Under the pieces are notes generated by a model, which searched no databases, was not told the DNA's origin, and worked only from the letters and a program-made list of their open reading frames with translations. A DNA stretch of 64,000 bases, from NCBI GenBank assembly GCA_963734545.1, contig CAVTHO010000007.1, forward strand, positions 352,001 to 416,000, read 5' to 3'. The DNA comes from an uncultured Spirochaetota bacterium. GTDB taxonomy: Bacteria > Spirochaetota > Spirochaetia > SZUA-6 > Fen-1364. Shown piece by piece: positions 14,106-34,187 of this stretch (position 1 is the stretch's first letter; each line of letters begins with the position of its first letter). A program made the position numbers and the translations under genes.

Positions 14106-14695
14106 GCTGGGTGGGGATCATCCTCCTGTTTGCCCTGGTCGACAACGTCATTCTCTCGCGTCTGCTCGGCATCTGCCCGCGTGTGGGGGGCGCAGGGAAC
14201 ATGCGCGCCGTTCTGGCGATCGGCGTATCGACAGCCGTGCTCATGGCCGTCTCCGCCCTCGCCGGTTGGGCTATCGACACGCTGGTGCTGGATCCGCTTC
14301 GGGTCGGCTTCCTCCGCACCCCCGCGTTCGTGCTGGCGGTCGCGGGTCTCGCGTTCTTTCTCCAGGCAATGGCTTCCCGCATTTCGCCCGTTCTCGTGCG
14401 CACTTCCGGCTTCTCCCTGCCGGGCGTGGCCATCAACTGCGCCACGCTCGGGATCGTCCTCATCACGACGCGCGGGGGGTACACGGCCGCCGAGAGTCTC
14501 ATCGCGGGACTCGCGGCAGGGCTCGGCTTCATGCTCGTGCGTGCCCTGATGTCCGCCATCAGCGAACGGCTGGCAATCGAGCGGATTCCCCGGGCCTTGA
14601 GCGGGTTTCCGCTCGAATTGATATCGGCGGGTCTCATGGCATACGCGTTCATGGCATTCGACCGCGCGTTTCTTGCGCGTATCCTCGGCGGATAG
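14102..14695 (+). CDS. rnfA: Rnf complex subunit A
   Basis: NVILSRLLGICP, INCATLG, LISAGLMAYAF. Confidence 0.85.
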   Translation: MSWVGIILLFALVDNVILSRLLGICPRVGGAGNMRAVLAIGVSTAVLMAVSALAGWAIDTLVLDPLRVGFLRTPAFVLAVAGLAFFLQAMASRISPVLVRTSGFSLPGVAINCATLGIVLITTRGGYTAAESLIAGLAAGLGFMLVRALMSAISERLAIERIPRALSGFPLELISAGLMAYAFMAFDRAFLARILGG

Positions 14696-14705
14696 GATCC
14701 GGATC

Positions 14706-16738
14706 ATGGGAAAGGTCGGAATCATCATCGGCACGCACAACCATCTGCCCCTGGGACTGGACCAGGCGGGTGCGGAGCTCCTGTACCAGCAGGCGTTCAA
14801 GCCCCTGCTGGCCGTCCTGTACCGCTACCCGGGATTCCCCGTCACTCTTCATTACAGCGGTATCCTGATGGAGTGGCTGGAGCAGCTTCATCCCGAGTTC
14901 CTGACCCTGCTCGCTGAAATGGTCAGACGCGGGCAGGTCGAGGTGCTGGGGGGAGGGTACTATGATCCCATCCTTCCCTTGATCCCGACGAATGACAAGC
15001 TCGGCCAGCTGGAGAAAATGACCACGCTGCTGCGCGTCCGGTTCGAAACGCGACCGCGCGGCTGCTGGATAGCGGAGAAGGTGTGGGAGCCGTCACTGGC
15101 CTCCGTGCTTCGCGCGAGCGGCATCGACTACACGTTCGTGGACGACGGCCAGTTCAGAATCGCGGGCGTGCCCGAGGCCGGACTCTGGCGGCCCTGCATC
15201 ACCGAAGACCAGGGAAAGACCATTTCTCTCCTTGCCGTCTCGGGGGCCCTGCCCGCCCTCGCCGCGAGCGCCGGCCCGGCGGAGGTAATAGCCTTTCTCA
15301 AGGAGCTGCCCCGGAGCGGCGATGGCAGCCCGGTGGCGGTGTATCTGGATGACGGGATTGCCGCGCCGAAAACCCTGCTCAGGAACGGCTGGCTGGAGGA
15401 GTTCATCGCGCGCGCGGCGGAGAACACCGACTGGCTGGAACCCTCCACCCCGGGACTCTATCTGAGAGGCAATCCTCCCACCCGCCGGATTTTCGTTCCG
15501 TCCAGCTCGTCGATGGAAATGATGCAGTGGGCGCTGTCTCGCGACCGCCGCACGGCATTCAAAGAGCTGCGCCAGCGCTCTGCGTCGCCGGAGCACGACC
15601 GCCAGTTCATGGTGGGAGGCCAGTTCCGGCAGTTCCTCATCCGCTATCCCGAAGCCTGGCTCATGTACGCCAAAATGATGAACACGCACGTACTCGTGAA
15701 TCAGGTACGGGGCGATAAATACAAGAAGAAAGCGGCGCAGAACGAGCTCTGGAAAGGGCAAAGCCACCATGCATACTGGCACGGCGGAAGCGGGGGAATC
15801 TACGAGAACGCCCTGCGCAAGTCGGTGTACCAGTCGCTGATCGAGGCGGAAAAGATCACCCGGGCCACGGAAATTTTCGCTCCTTCCATCATCAGCGTCG
15901 ACTACGACATGGACAATTGCAATGAGTACCTCTACCAGGGCTCGGAGCTCAACGCATACATCCATTCCCGCGGCGGGGCCATGTTCGAGCTGGATTTTCT
16001 GCCTTCTTCATGGAACTACCTCGACACCATGATGACCGGGAAGAAGAATGCGGCGAGGGGCTCGACGGCGTCTCACCCCGCGGGGAGGAGCCGTCCTGCG
16101 CGTATCAGAGGAAGGCTTTCATCGATCACTTTTTCACGGACGGCTGCGCGCTTCGGGATTTCGAGTCGGGGCGTCACACCGAGGCGGGGGATTTCGTGGC
16201 AGGGCTGTACGAGCTGGTGGATCTCAACCGCGCGCTGCCGGAGCTCCTCATGCGCCGCACGGGCTCCATTTCCGTCGGGGGCGTTGCCCAGGCGGCGGGC
16301 ATAGAAAAGCGATTCGTTTTCCGTCCCCGCTCGATCGACGTGTACTACCGGGTCTCCAATCTCGGTCCCGCCGACATCACGACACGATTCGGAGTCGAGA
16401 TCAACCTTTCGCTCGCCGCGCGATCCGCCGACTGCGGAAGGCTCTTTCTCCTCGACGAGGACAGGAAAAGGGAGATCGAATCTGAAGCCACCGAGATCGA
16501 GGGAGTGAAGGGCCTGCTGGTGCGCGACGTGCGAAACGAGGTCTCCGTCACCCTGTCGTCCGCCCGGGAGTTTCGCTGCTGGAGCATTCCCGTGGAGACC
16601 ATGACATCCGACACGGCTGCCGGCGCCCGCGTGTTCCAGTCGTACTGCTTCGTGCCGCAGTGGGATCTGCGGCTTGCGGTCGGAGAGGCATGGGAAAATC
16701 ACATGAGCGTCGGTTTCGAGAAGACTCAGGGGCCATAG
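14706..16738 (+). CDS. GH57 alpha-amylase / 4-alpha-glucanotransferase (frameshift near 16040)
   Basis: HNHLP, GGGYYDPIL, GCWIAEKVWE (catalytic Glu), AYWHG; DUF1926-like C-terminal beta domain in ORF 16010-16738. Confidence 0.85.
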
Positions 16739-16900
16739 CCATGGACGGCGAGGGCGAGCGAGTGCAGGGACGACACGAAAGCGAGGCCGTAGCCATGGAC
16801 GGCGAGGGCGAGCGAGTGCAGGGACGCACAAAAGTGAGCCCGTAGGCATGGACGGCGAGGGCGAGCGAGTGCAGGGATGCGCGTAAGGAAGAGCCCATAG
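16736..16900 (+). ncRNA. candidate CsrA/RsmA-binding structured RNA: 3 tandem 53-55 nt units, each with two ANGGAN-loop hairpins
   Basis: Units start at 16736, 16790 and 16843 with core TAG(C/G)CATGGACGGCGAGGGCGAGCGAGTGCAGGGA(C/T)G. Hairpins are GCC-ATGGAC-GGC and GTGC-AGGGAC-GCAC. The repeat is certain; RNA function is inferred. Confidence 0.45.
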
Positions 16901-16925
16901 GCCGGCAGCCGCGCGTGCGCGGCGC

Positions 16926-16951
16926 AGAATCCGCGGAGTACCGCGGCGCGC
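16926..16951. repeat. single copy of the hairpin repeat
   Basis: AGAATCCGCGGAGTACCGCGGCGCGC, directly abutting the stop codon at 16952. Confidence 0.9.
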
Positions 16952-18249
16952 TCAGTTGTCCGTCACCGCCAGCTTCTCGAAGCAGGCGTCCTTCCAGGAC
17001 TGCACTTCCGGGTAGTAATAGTCTTCGCTCAGAATGAACTCCATGAGCGCGTCGCGGGCCCTCTCCTGGAAGTAGTAGGTCTGACCGAGGTAGTACCGGG
17101 CATGCGCCTCGACCTGCGCGGTGCGCGGCAGACGCAGAAAATCAATCAGGCTCCTGGCAGGCTCCCGCCATGTCCCCCTCGCTGAAAGGACCCGTGATGA
17201 TAGCCTGCAAGCCGCGCAAGCTCGCCGTTGGGCAGTGGGCGTGGCATCCGAGGAAAGCACTTCCCGCGTCCGCTCCTTCACCGCGGGTGGCTGCACGTTT
17301 CTCATGAGGAGCCGGATCGATCTTTCTGTAGCGGGCGACACCTTTGTCTTTTCCGGGAGCTCCGGCAGCGTCGGGTCCGGCGAGCTGCAGCCCGTTCTGT
17401 ACGCCGAGGGTGACCACGAGGGACGGCAGAGGCATGGGCCTCCGCGCCGTGGGCAGCGAGGGGGAGGCCCTGCCGACTGAGACCGGGATCTGCACGGGGT
17501 CGACAGTCGTGTTGACTCCGCCTCACCAGTGTGGCCTGCCCGATTCTGTAGAGGCCGGCATCCATCACGGCAAACCAGTAGTCAACGCCGGGGAAGACCG
17601 GGAGAAAGTAGCTGGTTGTGCCCGGGTCGAGCTGCGTGACGGCTGTCGAGGTGAGGAGATCGTCGGGTTTCGAGAGGGGGGCAGTACCCCAGAAGAGGAG
17701 GAGATTACGGGCAGGGGAGGAGGAGGTGAAAGTGACGTCAACGCCATCTCCGACCGAGCTGACCCTGGCTTTGATGCCGCTTATCCGCGCGGCGAGCTCC
17801 TCTTCAGGCGCCGCTGACTGCCCCGATGCCGCCACGCTCGTCTTGTTGCGGTAGGGGATGAGAACAGGATAGAGGGTCCCGGCCGGGTCCTGGACGATGA
17901 CGGCGTAGAAATACCCCTTCTGATCGGGCGGCGTATCCACATAGAACTCCACCCCGGCATCCACTTTGGCTATGAGGAGCGCCTTCGAGAAACTCTGCGA
18001 CGTGATCTCCTCGGGCGACCGGTACACGACATAGAGGCCCTTGAGGTCCGGCGAGTCCTTCCAGGTCAGCTTGACCTGGAAGTCGATGACCTGGGCCTTC
18101 AGACGCGTGGCAAAAGGAGCGAAACCCGCTGTTTCCCGCTGGCCGGAGGGCGCTTCCTGGCCCGAAACAAGAATCGGGGCGAGGAGGAACGCGATCATGA
18201 CGATCGGGAACCGCATTCTGCCTGGTTTTCGGTCATGGTTCCCCCTCAT
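16952..18249 (-). CDS. exported protein with fibronectin-III-like domains and C-terminal TPR (indels near 17520 and 17370)
   Basis: AAGGAG RBS; signal peptide; VKLTWKDS...YVVYRS...YFYAV; TPR ARYYLGQTYY in ORF 16952-17341. Confidence 0.65.
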
Positions 18250-23822: not shown

Positions 23823-25225
23823 AGACACCGCTGTCGGTCCTTGTGGCGGCCAGGTACTTTCGCACGAAGCGCCGCGATACCGGCAACGCCTCCTCCCTTC
23901 TCTCGGTGGCCGGGATCGCCATTGGCGTCATGACGCTTACCGTGGTCCTCGCGGTGATGAACGGATTCCAGCTCGGATTCATCGACAGCATCGTGGAGAT
24001 CAGCTCGTATCATCTTCAATTGCGCGCGGAGCTTGCCGGGCAGCCGGGATGCCGCGGCGAGGAGCGGCCTGCCGCGCCGCGGTACTCCGCGGATTTTCCT
24101 CCCGCGCCGCGGTACTCCGCGGATTTTCCTCCCGCGCTGGATGCCGCGCTCATTGCGCGCATCCAGTCGGCCGTCGGAGTGACCGCGGTCGTGCCCTTCG
24201 TCGAGAGACAGGCGCTCGTCGAAGGGGTATTCCAGCGGCCGCGCGCGTGCTCGGTCCGCGCGGTACCCCCGGAGCTTTTGTCTCTCGACCCGGTGCAGGC
24301 GCGGATGCTCGCCCTTCGCCAGGGCTCATTCTCCTTGGGTGATCAGCGCTCCCTGGTGATCGGCTCCGAGCTTGCCGCCGCGATGGGCGCGCGCGTCGGC
24401 GACGCGCTTTCTCTCACCTCGTACGCGACAGGCGCGGGCGGCCGTCCCTCCCCGCGCCGCGACGAATTTCAGGTGTCGGGCATCTTCCATACCGGATACT
24501 ACGATTTCGATACGGGGCTCGTGTTCATGTCACTGGAGGCCGCAGACGCGCTCTATGGCGCGGGCCTGCCGCTGCCCCGCACGTGGGGAATAAAGATCGC
24601 CAACCGGTTCGACGACTCCCGGACGCTGCGCGCCGTGTCCGGCCTGCTCGCGGGGACCGGCTACGGTGCGGAGAGCTGGCGGACCTACAATCGGTCTTTC
24701 TTCGACGCGCTGTTCGTGGAAAAGCTCATGATGATGGTCCTGATCGGGATCATCTTCATCGTCGTCGGCTTCAACGTATACCATTCACTGCGCCGCAGCG
24801 TATTCGAGAGGATGGAAGAGATTGCCGTTCTCAAGGCGGTCGGCATTCCGCCCCGGCGCGTGCAGGCGATATTCATCCTCGAGGGGCTCTTCATCGGCCT
24901 GGCAGGGGGTGCAGCGGGGTTGATCGCGGGGCTGGTCCTCGCGGTGAATGTGAGCGGGGTATTCTCCGCCGTGGAAGGAGTGATCAACTGGGTTCTGCGC
25001 ACGGGGTCGCTCCTTCTCTCTCCTTTCGCCTCCGGGGAGGCGGCGGGCACCTTTGCGATATTCTCGCCCACGTATTTCTACCTGACGCAGGTGCCGTCCC
25101 ACGTGTATCTTCGGGAGGCATTCCTCGTCTCATTCTTTGCCGTGATGGCGTGCACCGGCGCTGCATGGGCCGCCACGCGCGCCATTTCCCGATTCCGACC
25201 CTCGGAGGTTCTGCGCTATGAGTGA
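23819..25225 (+). CDS. LolC/E-family ABC permease
   Basis: VLAVMNGFQ, GIFHTGYYDFD, EIAVLKAVG, PSEVLRYE. Contains an in-frame hairpin-repeat insertion. Confidence 0.85.
   Translation: MKTPLSVLVAARYFRTKRRDTGNASSLLSVAGIAIGVMTLTVVLAVMNGFQLGFIDSIVEISSYHLQLRAELAGQPGCRGEERPAAPRYSADFPPAPRYSADFPPALDAALIARIQSAVGVTAVVPFVERQALVEGVFQRPRACSVRAVPPELLSLDPVQARMLALRQGSFSLGDQRSLVIGSELAAAMGARVGDALSLTSYATGAGGRPSPRRDEFQVSGIFHTGYYDFDTGLVFMSLEAADALYGAGLPLPRTWGIKIANRFDDSRTLRAVSGLLAGTGYGAESWRTYNRSFFDALFVEKLMMMVLIGIIFIVVGFNVYHSLRRSVFERMEEIAVLKAVGIPPRRVQAIFILEGLFIGLAGGAAGLIAGLVLAVNVSGVFSAVEGVINWVLRTGSLLLSPFASGEAAGTFAIFSPTYFYLTQVPSHVYLREAFLVSFFAVMACTGAAWAATRAISRFRPSEVLRYE
24072..24137. repeat. 2 tandem 30-bp hairpin repeats in frame within the lolC/E gene
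   Basis: CCGCGCCGCGGTACTCCGCGGATTTTCCTC x2, encoding APRYSADFPP twice. Confidence 0.9.
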
Positions 25226-31425: not shown

Positions 31426-34187
31426 GACCAGGCCCTGCCGCGCCTCCCGCTCTCCTTCGCTCGCGGCGATGGCGCGGGGGCGCGCGGCGGGGCGCCGCGG
31501 TACACCGCGGATTTTGGGGCGCCGCGGTACACCGCGGATTCTGGGGCGCCGCGGTACACCGCGGATTCTGGGGCGCCGCGGTACACCGCGGATTCTGGGG
31601 CGCCGCGGTACACCGCGGATTCTGGGGCGCCGCGGTACGGCGTACTCGCCGAACGGGTACGGCCTTCGGGCCGAGCGCGTGCTCGCGCACTCCCGTATTC
31701 CGCGGATTCTCCGCGGCGCGCCTTTGGGCCATCGTGGCGGCCATGCTCCTGTTCATTACTCCGTGTTTTGCCGAGCAGGCCCAGGGCCGAATGTCTCCGG
31801 AAGGGACCTTTCGGCTCGCCGGGGCAGCCTACCGGGCCGAGGATTACGCGCGTGCGCGTGATCTGTACGGAAAGATAGTCCTGGAATATCCGCTGACTCC
31901 ATTTGTCCGTGATTCGCTGTTCTTCCTGGCCGAATGTGAGCTTGCCCTGGGCAACAGCGCGGAAGCGGACAAGCGCTATCGCACCCTTCTCTCCCTTTAC
32001 CCTGATTCACCTTACCGGGAGGCCTCCACCTTTCGACTGGCCGATATTGCCTGGCGCGCCAGGAATGTTTCAGAGGCTCTTGTGCAGCTCGACGCGCTGC
32101 AGAAGCAGTTTCCGGATGGCGCTTATCGCGGCAACGCACTCTGCATGGAAGGGGATATCCAATTCACGCAGAACGACTATGCGCGGGCCCTTTTCGAATA
32201 TGAAAGCGCCATTGCGCGCTTGAAGGAAGGCCCCGGCCGGCAGACGGCCTGGTATGCGAAGGGACTCACCCTTCTCGCGCTGGGAAGGATTGGCGATGCA
32301 CAGGCATCGTTCGCCATGGCTGCAGCGGGCGCTGCGCCTGATATAGCGGAAAAGGCGGGCTTTCGGCGCGCGGTGCTTCTCGCGGGCGCCGGCAACGATC
32401 GAGATGCGGTGCCGGCCTTGAGCACGTTTCTGAAGCAATTTCCCGGCAGCGCCGAGACTGAGAAGGCCGCCGCGCTCATGGCGTCACTCCTGGTGAAAAG
32501 CGGCGATTCAGCGGGAGCGCTCGCCCGCTGGGACTCGCTGGTGAAAGGCTTCCCCCTGTCCGATTCGTTGCCAGAATATCTCTACAAAAGGGGCCAGGCC
32601 CTGGTCGCGCTGAACCGCGTCTCAGAGGCGCTGGACGATCTGCAGGCCGTCGTAACCCGATACCCACGCTCGCCCTGGAGCGCGCAGAGCTCCTACATGA
32701 TAGGCTATGTCTACACCCGGCGCGCCGAGTATCCCCGGGCGCTGCCGTATTTCCAATCCGCGGCGCAGAGTTCCGCGGAGGAAGAGCTCTCCGAGCGCAG
32801 TCTCTTTTCCATGGGGATCTGCCTGTTCAACATGGGCAGCTTCGACAGGGCGCTTGCGCGCTTTGAAGACCTCCGTTCCCGGAAGCCGAAGAGCATTTCC
32901 GAGGGCACAATCGTCGTGTTGATCGGCAGGACCCTCTATCGCGTGGGGAGGCTGGAAGAGGCTGTCCTGCGCCTGGGCGAAGCGGCAAGGCTGCTCGCGG
33001 CTGATTCCCTCGCTGACAGGACACGTGACGCTGCGGACGGGTCCGATGCCGCGTACTGGCTCGGATGGGCGAACCTGCGCCTGGGGCGTCTCGTCGAGGC
33101 TCGGGATGCCTTTCTTGTCCTGGCCAGGGAGTACCCTGCTGACGCGCGGCGCGTCGAGTCGCTGCTTCGCGCCGGCATCTGTGAAACCATGCGGGCGGAG
33201 GACACGGCCGCCGTGCGGCTCTTTGATGAAGTCATTGCCGCTCCCCGGTCGGCCGGAAATGGCGACCCGCGGGAGCAGGCGCTCTACGAGGAAGGCAGGG
33301 CTCTCGGCAGGCTTGGCAAGGCGCAGGAGCGCGCGGATGTGTTCGAGCGTCTTGCCGCGGAATTTCCCGCAGGGAAACTGGCACCGCAGGCCTTTTTCAA
33401 GCTCGCCGAGGAGGCTCTCGCGGACGGCCGCTACGCAGCGGCCGAATCCGGCTTTCAGAGGGTTGTGCGGGATTTTCCGGCGAGCGGCCTCGCTCTGCAG
33501 GCGCTCTATTGGAAGGCGCACGCAGTCTGGGAAGCAGGCGATCCCCGCGCAGCGCTCGACGGTTTCTGGGAATGCCTCGCGCAGGGCGCCCGGGCCGGCC
33601 TGCTGACAACCGCAACGGACGCGTTTCGCTCCGCGCTTCGCGCGACAGGGGACCTGGAGCTCGCCCGAAAGTTCTCGGAAAGGGCTGTCGGAAGCAGGGG
33701 ACTTGCGGTCGAAGCCGCAGCCGGGATCCAGCTCGAATACGCGCAGATGCTCCTGGGATCCGACCCGGAAGCGGCGCGAGCCGTCATCGATGACGTGAGG
33801 CGTGCCATGCCCCCTGAGCCTCTTGCCGGAGAAGCGAGCCTTCTCCAGGGAAGGTACCTGGCCGCGGTGGGTGACTGGAAAAAGGCCGAGGACGTATTCA
33901 GGTCCCTGGAAAGCGCACGCACGGACGAAGTGGGAGCACGGGCGGCAGGCGAGCATGCGCGCGTCCTGGAATCTACCGGGCGAACCGCCGAGGCGATCGA
34001 TGCGTACGTGACGGTCTCCTCCCGGTTTCCGGAATTCCAGGACATTGCGGCCCAGGGGCTCTACGAAGCGCGAAGAGTTGCCCGTGCTCGTGGAAACATG
34101 GGCAGGGCAGCGGAGATCGAGGAACGCCTGAGAAAGGCCTACCCTGACAGCCCATGGGTCCGGAAGCTGGATGCGACTATTGAATAG
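31422..34187 (+). CDS. large exported TPR protein (start either 31422 via ATGA coupling or near 31743)
   Basis: Many TPR/BamD-like repeats (xxYPxSP); signal-like segment [17 protein letters not shown]. Confidence 0.8.
31489..31638. repeat. 5.5 tandem 27-bp hairpin repeats GGGGCGCCGCGGTACACCGCGGATT(C/T)T
   Basis: Units at 31489, 31516, 31543, 31570, 31597 and a partial at 31624; half copy at 31695-31710. Confidence 0.95.

Follow-up and report, generated by a model that had tools for sequence, protein, structure and literature searches.

In spirochaetes and Firmicutes, CsrA is a flagellin-specific regulator that is held in check by the protein FliW, and FliW-type CsrA is thought to be near-stoichiometric with FliW and flagellin; RNA antagonists of CsrA are, to our knowledge, established only in the Gammaproteobacteria. 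Here, a short structured repeat is described from a stretch of 64,000 nucleotides (hereafter the window) of an uncultured Spirochaetota bacterium (GenBank assembly GCA_963734545.1, contig CAVTHO010000007.1, positions 352,001 to 416,000 of the forward strand), in which three tandem units, each with two GGA-bearing hairpins, start on the stop codon that closes a gene for a GH57-family alpha-glucan enzyme. The explanation favoured here, with moderate confidence, is that the array consists of three copies of a non-autonomous mobile element of about 55 nt whose RNA docks CsrA dimers. The element inserts at the motif C-R-TAG, which is duplicated in the process, and this motif is mostly the TAG stop codon of a gene, the element then lying in gene orientation. 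Through its loops, the family may soak up or recruit CsrA.

Several described systems invite comparison. Repetitive extragenic palindromic (REP) sequences have a G-T-A-G head and block 3'-exonucleases or mark transcript ends, and Liang and Deutscher are said to have reported in 2015 that REPs close to stop codons affect translation. A CsrA dimer can reach across 10-63 nt, and a two-site layout is known for CsrA-controlled flagellin mRNAs (hag). A FliW-CsrA-flagellin circuit that includes flaB has been described in Borrelia burgdorferi (PMC12327847), and the consensus obtained for CsrA by systematic evolution of ligands by exponential enrichment (SELEX) has ACA and GGA fixed, with the GGA in a hairpin loop (PMC4347634). 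For the TwoAYGGAY RNA motif (Rfam RF01731), a mobile-element-like spread has been suggested and a role as Csr/Rsm sponge has been proposed, as yet untested (Weinberg 2010 PMC2864571; Gardner & Eldai PMC4333381; Li et al. bioRxiv 10.64898/2026.09.22.753630), and its stem is described as carrying tandem G.A pairs (PMC4333381). MIRUs, on the other hand, are mobile repeats of about 50 nt, often in tandem, that insert exactly on a translational signal and disturb the host gene little (PMC12548453). A search of the literature on CsrA with REP elements and on TwoAYGGAY returned nothing on spirochaetes or on stop-codon anchoring.

Three units at a GH57 stop codon and their dispersed family

A first-pass annotation of the window, made from the letters and a list of open reading frames (ORFs), had noted three repeat units, the first overlapping the GH57 stop codon, and this description was borne out. 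Tandem Repeats Finder, run on the window, returned 16731-16877 with a period of 53, 2.8 copies, 93% matches and a score of 250, and reading of the sequence delimits three units of 53-56 nt at 16733-16900 with six hexaloop hairpins of the form C-A-N-GGA-Y-G. The TAG at 16736-16738, which closes the ORF 16010-16738, is supplied by unit 1, and this ORF encodes PF09095, the C-terminal domain of a GH57-type amylase/glucanotransferase. The features of the array (window coordinates) are as follows.

16010-16738, + strand: C-terminal part of the GH57-family alpha-glucan enzyme gene (PF09095 AmyA-gluTrfs_C, E 2.6e-26; best codon score of the six frames)
16733-16788, + strand: unit 1 (nhmmer and covariance-model matches at C7:368733-368786)
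16733-16738: unit 1, head CCATAG
16738-16749: unit 1, hairpin A (GGA 16743-16745)
16752-16759: unit 1, 5' strand of helix P1
16762-16776: unit 1, hairpin B (GGA 16768-16770, one-base bulge A16773)
16777-16780: unit 1, internal-loop GAAA
16781-16788: unit 1, 3' strand of P1
16787-16841, + strand: unit 2 (sequence, nhmmer, alignment)
16787-16792: unit 2, head CCGTAG
16792-16803: unit 2, hairpin A (GGA 16797-16799)
16806-16813: unit 2, 5' strand of P1
16816-16829: unit 2, hairpin B (GGA 16822-16824)
16834-16841: unit 2, 3' strand of P1
16840-16896, + strand: unit 3 (sequence, nhmmer, alignment, covariance model)
16840-16845: unit 3, head CCGTAG
16845-16856: unit 3, hairpin A (GGA 16850-16852, one G.G mismatch)
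16859-16866: unit 3, 5' strand of P1
16869-16882: unit 3, hairpin B (GGA 16875-16877, one U.G pair)
16887-16896: unit 3, degenerate 3' strand of P1
16894-16900, + strand: terminal direct repeat CCCATAG

The terminal repeat shares its rare A variant with the unit 1 head and therefore looks like a target-site duplication. Hairpin A agrees with the first-pass drawing (G-C-C / AUGGAC / G-G-C, with a mismatch in unit 3), and the bulge in hairpin B of unit 1 and the G-U pair in that of unit 3 lie where they had been placed. The 'small loops' GAAA, AAAA and GUAA, by contrast, had been misread: they are not hairpin loops but the 3' side of a 2x4 internal loop that leads from hairpin B to the 8-bp helix P1, which had been overlooked and which carries each hairpin B.

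The host gene shows a peculiarity of its own, since it is split in the window over two overlapping frames, 14673-16304 with the GH57 and middle domains and 16010-16738 with the C-terminal domain, and in the nearest relative the orthologue reads through at least 678 codons to the same stop. The split amounts to a frameshift, the sign of a pseudogene or else of an error in the assembly.

In its general form the unit has five parts, namely a C-R-TAG head, the 3-bp hairpin A, the 8-bp helix P1, the 2x4 internal loop and the 4-bp hairpin B. From 5' to 3', the order is C-R-TAG; hairpin A (G-N-C, loop A-N-GGA-Y, G-N'-C), whose first base is the G of the TAG stop; G-A-G; the 8-nt 5' strand of P1; G-A; hairpin B (G-N-N-C, loop A-N-GGA-Y, G-N'-N'-C); G-A-A-A; the 3' strand of P1; and C-R-TAG again.

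This unit is dispersed throughout the genome and its relatives. The 170-nt array gave 46 BLAST matches in its own 5.1-Mb genome, and an iterated nhmmer search seeded with the three window units converged on 80 units, which lie on both strands at 63 loci; 50 of these loci have a single unit, 9 have two and 4 have three. From 43 full-length copies a covariance model was built, which gave 95 matches with E at or below 0.01 when the best 150 candidates were scored; as the best 132-150 candidates were scored per genome, all copy numbers from this model are lower bounds. In the relatives compared, which are metagenome-assembled genomes of uncultured Spirochaetota, Spirochaetaceae or Spirochaetia, the model detected the element in 20/20 genomes of the genus (at least 15-65 matches each) and in 4/4 genomes of three other genera of the taxonomic family (at least 6-46), hence in all 24 genomes searched in that family, and outside it gave weak matches only, in 3 of 16 genomes. 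Units within a locus always lie on the same strand, as seen at all 13 multi-unit loci (0/63 loci mixed), and the inverted-pair arrangement of REPINs and bacterial interspersed mosaic elements (BIMEs) was found at none of these 13.

Folding and covariation support the architecture. The minimum-energy fold of window unit 2 (16786-16846) consists of P1 and hairpin B, with -23.8 kcal/mol and a z-score of -2.54 (1 of 200 shuffles as good), and another single copy reaches -33.6 kcal/mol with a z-score of -3.84 (0 of 200). Among the 43 own-genome copies, 90.0% of pair cells are paired compared to 69.3% in column shuffles (0 of 500 shuffles reach 90.0%), the covariation score is 0.420 versus 0.097 after shuffling, and both sides change in 10 of 15 pairs, with slid-partner controls at 28-42%. 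The same holds for 31 copies that come from five genomes (four other genera, one of which belongs to another family) and were fitted to the covariance model: 97.4% of cells are paired (68.8% when shuffled) and 12 of the 15 pairs are compensated. P1 occurs in several mutually compensated versions, some of which contain tandem G.A pairs (48 G.A/A.G cells in 42 distinct copies). In addition, the own-genome pair cells comprise 8 G-U against 2 A-C, indicating that the strand showing GGA is the structured strand.

Insertion at C-R-TAG and the stop-codon excess

Orthologous sites with and without the element reveal how it is placed. In three sets of such sites all filled ones have C-R-TAG, namely 5/5 at the GH57 gene, 7/7 at a class II aminoacyl-tRNA synthetase gene and 2/2 in the rpsL-rpsG spacer. 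The last spacer, compared in 20 genomes, is a bare 14-18 nt in 15, has CCGCGG-type modules (a second repeat family, described below) in 3 and the element in 2. In the genome of the window, where the S12 and S7 identities were confirmed, 52 nt are inserted directly after G-C-A-TAG and end with C-C-A-TAG, that is, with a duplicated target of the rare A variant, and a relative with a 99%-identical S7 has an empty site. Of 20 genus genomes, 5 have units at the GH57 3' end, all with C-R-TAG, with other subfamilies in 4 genomes, differing even in the nearest relative; at least 8 of the 20 have an empty site, where TAG is directly followed by an unrelated spacer and C-R precedes TAG in just 2 of the 8. 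The remaining GH57 orthologues have TGA/TAA ends or a stop that could not be read (two truncated alignments, one with other repeats after TAG). The synthetase gene, whose native end is Ile-Tyr-Pro-stop, ends in TAG in 13 orthologues, TGA in 5 and TAA in 2; units occur at 7 of the 13 TAG sites, all C-C-G-TAG and two of them degenerate or composite, and at 0 of the 7 TGA/TAA sites.

The A/G variant of the motif agrees between the 5' and 3' ends across loci above chance (4, 2, 1, 10; Fisher p 0.028). Target-site duplication and presence or absence at orthologous sites are shared with miniature inverted-repeat transposable elements (MITEs), and no terminal inverted repeats were evident in the alignment of copies. 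Arrays composed of differing subfamilies suggest growth by repeated insertion at the duplicated site. As a separate observation, a different short repeat comes after the GH57 stop C-C-G-TAG of one relative and likewise starts with C-C-G-TAG; other elements may use this target too.

These results divide the interpretation offered by the first-pass annotation, which had left a choice between a CsrA-titrating RNA derived from the 3' untranslated region (3'UTR) of the glucan gene and a mobile repeat carrying CsrA sites. The second part stands, in view of the dispersed family, the filled and empty sites and the CsrA-type sites recognized by sequence match. The first, a dedicated sponge RNA gene of the CsrB/RsmZ type or a small RNA from the glucan-gene 3'UTR, has in its favour six GGA hexaloops within 170 nt downstream of a carbon-storage-type gene, as well as the presence of csrA in the genome, but is now hardly credible: the array is one of 63 loci, only 4 of which have three units, and no fewer than 8 of 20 congeners lack the element at the orthologous site. 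Moreover, a consensus scan of 16300-17300 found neither promoter-like nor terminator-like sites (0 each), and Rfam searches of 16700-16960 and 16000-17600 at E up to 10 returned no CsrB, CsrC or RsmX/Y/Z family.

With respect to the machinery of mobility, the sole Y1 transposase gene (PF01797) in the genome is IS200-like and of low GC content (C4:159529-160089), and has on either side a copy of a 19-nt hairpin (stem 8 bp, loop 3 nt) unrelated to the element. This IS200-like family has 0-5 copies among congeners, and PF01797 was not found in 9 of 21 genus genomes, all nine of which bear the element; three of these PF01797-negative genomes are 96-97% complete and have at least 55-65 element copies each. 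An origin from REPs with their REP-associated tyrosine transposase (RAYT) was rejected on these grounds.

The preference for stop codons is pronounced. At 39 of the 63 loci, an open frame of 80 codons or more ends in the leading TAG, and at 34 of these 39 the host frame has the best codon score of six, so that 34 of 63 loci are counted as stop-linked (the count combines open frames, six-frame codon score and Pfam, and the five dropped loci have a better-scoring other frame). Pfam domains were detected in 30 of the 34 host ORFs, whose genes are unrelated: ribosomal protein S12 (rpsL), Rho, Lon, TsaD, the class II aminoacyl-tRNA synthetase, phosphoenolpyruvate carboxykinase, kinases, regulators and sugar enzymes. 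The last codon of the host is N-C-R in 30 of 34. With 1199 TAG stops among 3895 in our own gene calls for this genome, C-R-TAG is occupied at 34 of 207 gene ends versus 29 of 2479 intergenic sites, and the gene-end share of 54% compares with 7.7% expected from site numbers, a sevenfold excess (binomial p 1e-21). In the other genus genomes, 14 of 18 fetched arrays are stop-linked, three of them at GH57 orthologues. An insertion on the stop codon in gene orientation leaves the reading frame untouched.

The 34 stop-linked loci comprise 20 between convergent genes and 14 between co-directional genes, including rpsL-rpsG, and this arrangement bears on a further explanation, in which the element acts at mRNA 3' ends without CsrA, the stem of P1 and hairpin B blocking 3'-exonucleases, marking transcript ends or being bound by a different RNA-binding protein. 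The position directly after stop codons in gene orientation at 34 of 63 loci, the 20 convergent contexts and the stability of single units (z -2.5 and -3.8) accord with it, and at the window locus, which has no U-tract terminator, another end signal would be useful. Nevertheless, stability alone leaves two invariant A-N-GGA loops unexplained, hairpin A has just 3 bp, and the 14 co-directional copies cannot be transcript ends; we regard this explanation as very unlikely.

The element is also found together with other repeats. In the second family, a CCGCGG-loop-CCGCGG hairpin forms the basis of each 27-30 nt unit, tandem arrays reach 5.6 copies, and one module lies in the window between the array and a convergent gene. 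Elsewhere in the genome, at nine loci or more, hairpin A of the GGA element has a CCGCGG module nested in it at one fixed place, and other hairpin modules of 20-50 nt are nested in hairpin A or B (C7:154892-155031, C9:252395-252470, C8:55506-55578, C4:290046-290115). The nesting of such modules in single units shows that these repeats form a mosaic of at least four module types. The corresponding features of the window are as follows.

16931-16946, no strand assigned: hairpin module CCGCGG-AGTA-CCGCGG of the second repeat family
16952-17341, - strand: convergent 129-aa ORF, with its stop 52 nt past the array and without a Pfam match; it adjoins the GH57 gene in relatives too
1201-1285, 1396-1441, 24068-24137 and 31489-31638: further occurrences of the second repeat family

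CsrA-type loops and the flagellin leaders

The loops of the element are constant apart from position 2. In the own genome, loop position 1 is A in 62/62 (loop A) and 74/74 (loop B), the three GGA positions are kept in 75/75, 76/76 and 76/76 of A loops and 74/75, 76/76 and 76/76 of B loops, and the loop-closing C and G in 61/61, 76/76, 80/80 and 75/76. Position 2 is free (loop A: U 41, G 19, C 7, A 3; loop B: G 49, U 19, C 4, A 4) and position 6 is U in 54/76 and 59/76. In four other genera, A and GGA are invariant as well (28-30 of 28-30), and conservation of the GGA loops among homologous copies, proposed as a check in the first-pass annotation, is thus confirmed; the TAG head is kept there in just 12 of 29. 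The distance from GGA to GGA is 25 nt inside a unit and 28 nt between units. A hexaloop GGA, a 5' A, C-G closure and pairs within the reach of a CsrA dimer are the features of high-affinity CsrA ligands, and the fixed and free positions of the element loops are those of the consensus given in PMC4347634.

The genome possesses both partners of a FliW-type system, and in this it resembles the FliW-CsrA-flagellin circuit of Borrelia burgdorferi (PMC12327847). The csrA gene (C4:34554-34919, - strand) encodes 121 aa with a canonical 55-residue core, whose best match among solved structures is 5dmb_D (E 1.5e-19) and in which the arginine aligned with E. coli R44 is kept; it overlaps fliW and lies behind a flagellin-like gene, so that csrA and fliW, for which the first-pass annotation had proposed to check, are both present and adjacent. 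In this protein the core is followed by a 66-residue Pro/Ala-rich low-complexity tail.

In all four flagellin genes of the genome, a hairpin with GGA precedes the coding start by about 40 nt; C-A-N-GGA-N-G hexaloops on GC stems make up three of these hairpins, and the ribosome site is AAGGAGG in three and AGGGAGG in the fourth. Five further genomes have the same hexaloop hairpin in 12 of 15 flagellin leaders, at -39 to -50 and with covarying stems. The hexaloop hairpin is hence found in 15 of 19 leaders from six genomes, about 39-50 nt upstream of the coding start, and the ribosome sites of the 19 leaders are AAGGAGG (14), AGGGAGG (3), ACGGAGG and GAGGAGG. This hairpin, kept across the order, is a conserved putative CsrA operator, and the leaders share the two-site layout of CsrA-controlled flagellin mRNAs (hag; for the flaB circuit, PMC12327847). 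The element family accounts for 102 of 321 intergenic hairpins of the C-A-N-GGA-N-G kind in the genome, and the other 219 are within the range of control triplets (85-224). In one genome of another family, loop position 6, which is free in known sites, does not covary between elements and leaders, being G or A in the former and U in the latter.

Taken together, these findings suggest how the element could act if it binds CsrA. Judging from its position, it would be transcribed as the first bases of the 3'UTR or of the intercistronic spacer of its host mRNA, most convincingly for the copy inside the rpsL-rpsG operon. Each transcribed unit would fold into two hairpins presenting C-A-N-GGA-Y-G hexaloops 25 nt apart, hairpin A beginning with the G of the stop codon and hairpin B standing on the 8-bp helix. 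Since the motif appears to be that of the hairpin about 40-50 nt upstream of the lineage's flagellin start codons, which has the form of a high-affinity CsrA ligand, and since the two hairpins are spaced at 25 nt, one CsrA dimer would clamp each unit. The family, which counts at least 80-95 units spread over dozens of mRNAs, some of them surely abundant (rpsL-rpsG), could constitute a distributed, mRNA-borne reservoir of CsrA sites; locally, the element could protect or mark the 3' end of its host message.

Several observations weigh against a CsrA-docking element. The whole 236-nt region folds no better than shuffles on either strand (z -0.54 on the + and -0.07 on the - strand), and array-wide folding, another of the checks proposed at first pass, was negative, the signal lying in single units and in covariation alone. 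Preservation does not differ between stop-linked and other loci (median 36.4 versus 32.4 bits, p 0.20). The csrA gene is found in 36 of 41 relatives, including families of the order without the element; the one genus lacking csrA, represented by 2 genomes, is without the element too, a sample too small to carry weight. Furthermore, given the near-stoichiometric relation of FliW and CsrA, a large constitutive sink might disturb the circuit. The remaining objections coincide with what would be expected of a purely selfish REP/MITE-like DNA element, whose hairpins are read on single-stranded DNA by a transposase or recombinase and whose likeness to CsrA ligands is without consequence. Covariation fits hairpins read on single-stranded DNA equally well, and a lack of any shared function among the host genes is what a selfish element would lead one to expect. 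Loci that are not stop-linked show no bias in orientation (15 have the upstream gene on their own strand and 14 on the other; upstream/downstream neighbours same-same 10, opposite-opposite 8, opposite-same 6, same-opposite 5), and eight loci are antisense to both neighbours. Such an element would also account for the filled and empty orthologous sites and their duplicated target, the nesting with further hairpin modules, the CCGCGG family among them, the REP-like G-T-A-G head and the copy number varying among congeners from at least 15 to 65. Against it stand the sole Y1 transposase being IS200-like with unrelated hairpins of its own and belonging to a family not found in 9 of 21 genus genomes, the direct orientation of units, never as inverted pairs, and the sevenfold stop-codon excess, which is not explained by target availability. 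Above all, the fixed/free pattern of the loops is exactly that of CsrA ligands and flagellin leaders, and across genera A-N-GGA stays invariant when the TAG head does not. On balance, a purely selfish element is considered somewhat unlikely, and the mobile element with CsrA-docking RNA is retained as the favoured explanation.

A bolder version of the latter is that the family represents the RNA antagonist believed to be missing from FliW-type CsrA systems, wired to translation termination, with the stop-codon excess kept by selection and not by the insertion mechanism. As the G of UAG is the first base of hairpin A, the terminating ribosome and CsrA would compete for the same bases. This version is decidedly unlikely; if it were true, CsrA occupancy of housekeeping messages (rpsL-rpsG, rho, lon, tsaD, aminoacyl-tRNA synthetase) would depend on translation load, and growth rate would be linked to the flagellar FliW-CsrA checkpoint.

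Implications and comparison with known systems

The combination of stop-codon anchoring, a match to the lineage's own flagellin operators and a FliW-type setting is what sets this family apart: a whole lineage carries tens of copies per genome that mimic its own putative flagellin operator hairpin, presumably in ordinary mRNAs at the stop codon. If the units bind CsrA, they would buffer a global regulator in a different and distributed manner, and the success of a mobile element would be tied to an RNA-binding protein of its host. Whatever the role of CsrA, this is a clear mobile element with a five-base target, ending mostly on stop codons, and as such the mirror image of the start-codon MIRUs. 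In practical terms, gene callers and RNA-motif scans will misread such sites, and single arrays resemble small-RNA genes.

Among described families, TwoAYGGAY comes closest. As far as it is characterized in the sources cited above, it shares with the element two C-G-closed hairpins with hexaloops of the A-Y-GGA-Y type, tandem G.A pairs in a stem (P1 in the element) and many copies per genome in strongly varying number. On the other hand, the element has no basal stem enclosing both hairpins, P1 enclosing hairpin B only; its loop position 2 can be any base, with G commonest in loop B; and it occurs in Spirochaetota as direct tandems on TAG stop codons, whereas TwoAYGGAY is reported from Pseudomonadota or Bacillota as divergent doublets. 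The RF01731 model matched the whole genome once, with 26.5 bits (E 0.154) against a gathering score of 43; in a 281-nt search the match had E 0.035 and is part of one array, with hairpin tips GCC-AUGGAU-GGC, and no match was obtained on 16700-16960 or 16000-17600 at E up to 10. Owing to the score below threshold and the different architecture, the family is not a member of TwoAYGGAY and appears to be a look-alike or distant relative, on whose closeness the variant architectures in the preprint (figures S26-S29) may bear.

Like REPs and BIMEs, the element is a short, GC-rich, structured extragenic repeat with tens to hundreds of copies, forming mosaics with other modules and often lying right after genes; unlike them, it has no cognate RAYT in the genome and no inverted pairs, its stems vary around fixed loops, and its target C-R-TAG is duplicated. 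With MIRUs, as described in PMC12548453, it shares a small size, tandem arrangement and landing on a translational signal, yet MIRUs lie at start codons with a coupled small ORF, and the element lies on stop codons with GGA hairpins and no ORF. Finally, it resembles CsrB, CsrC, RsmX/Y/Z and the CsrA operators of hag and flaB in having several GGA hexaloop hairpins at CsrA-dimer spacing, six of them in the window with loops invariant across 80 units, and differs from these sponge RNAs in having neither sequence nor Rfam kinship with them and in presumably being embedded in many mRNAs instead of forming a separate gene with a promoter and terminator of its own.

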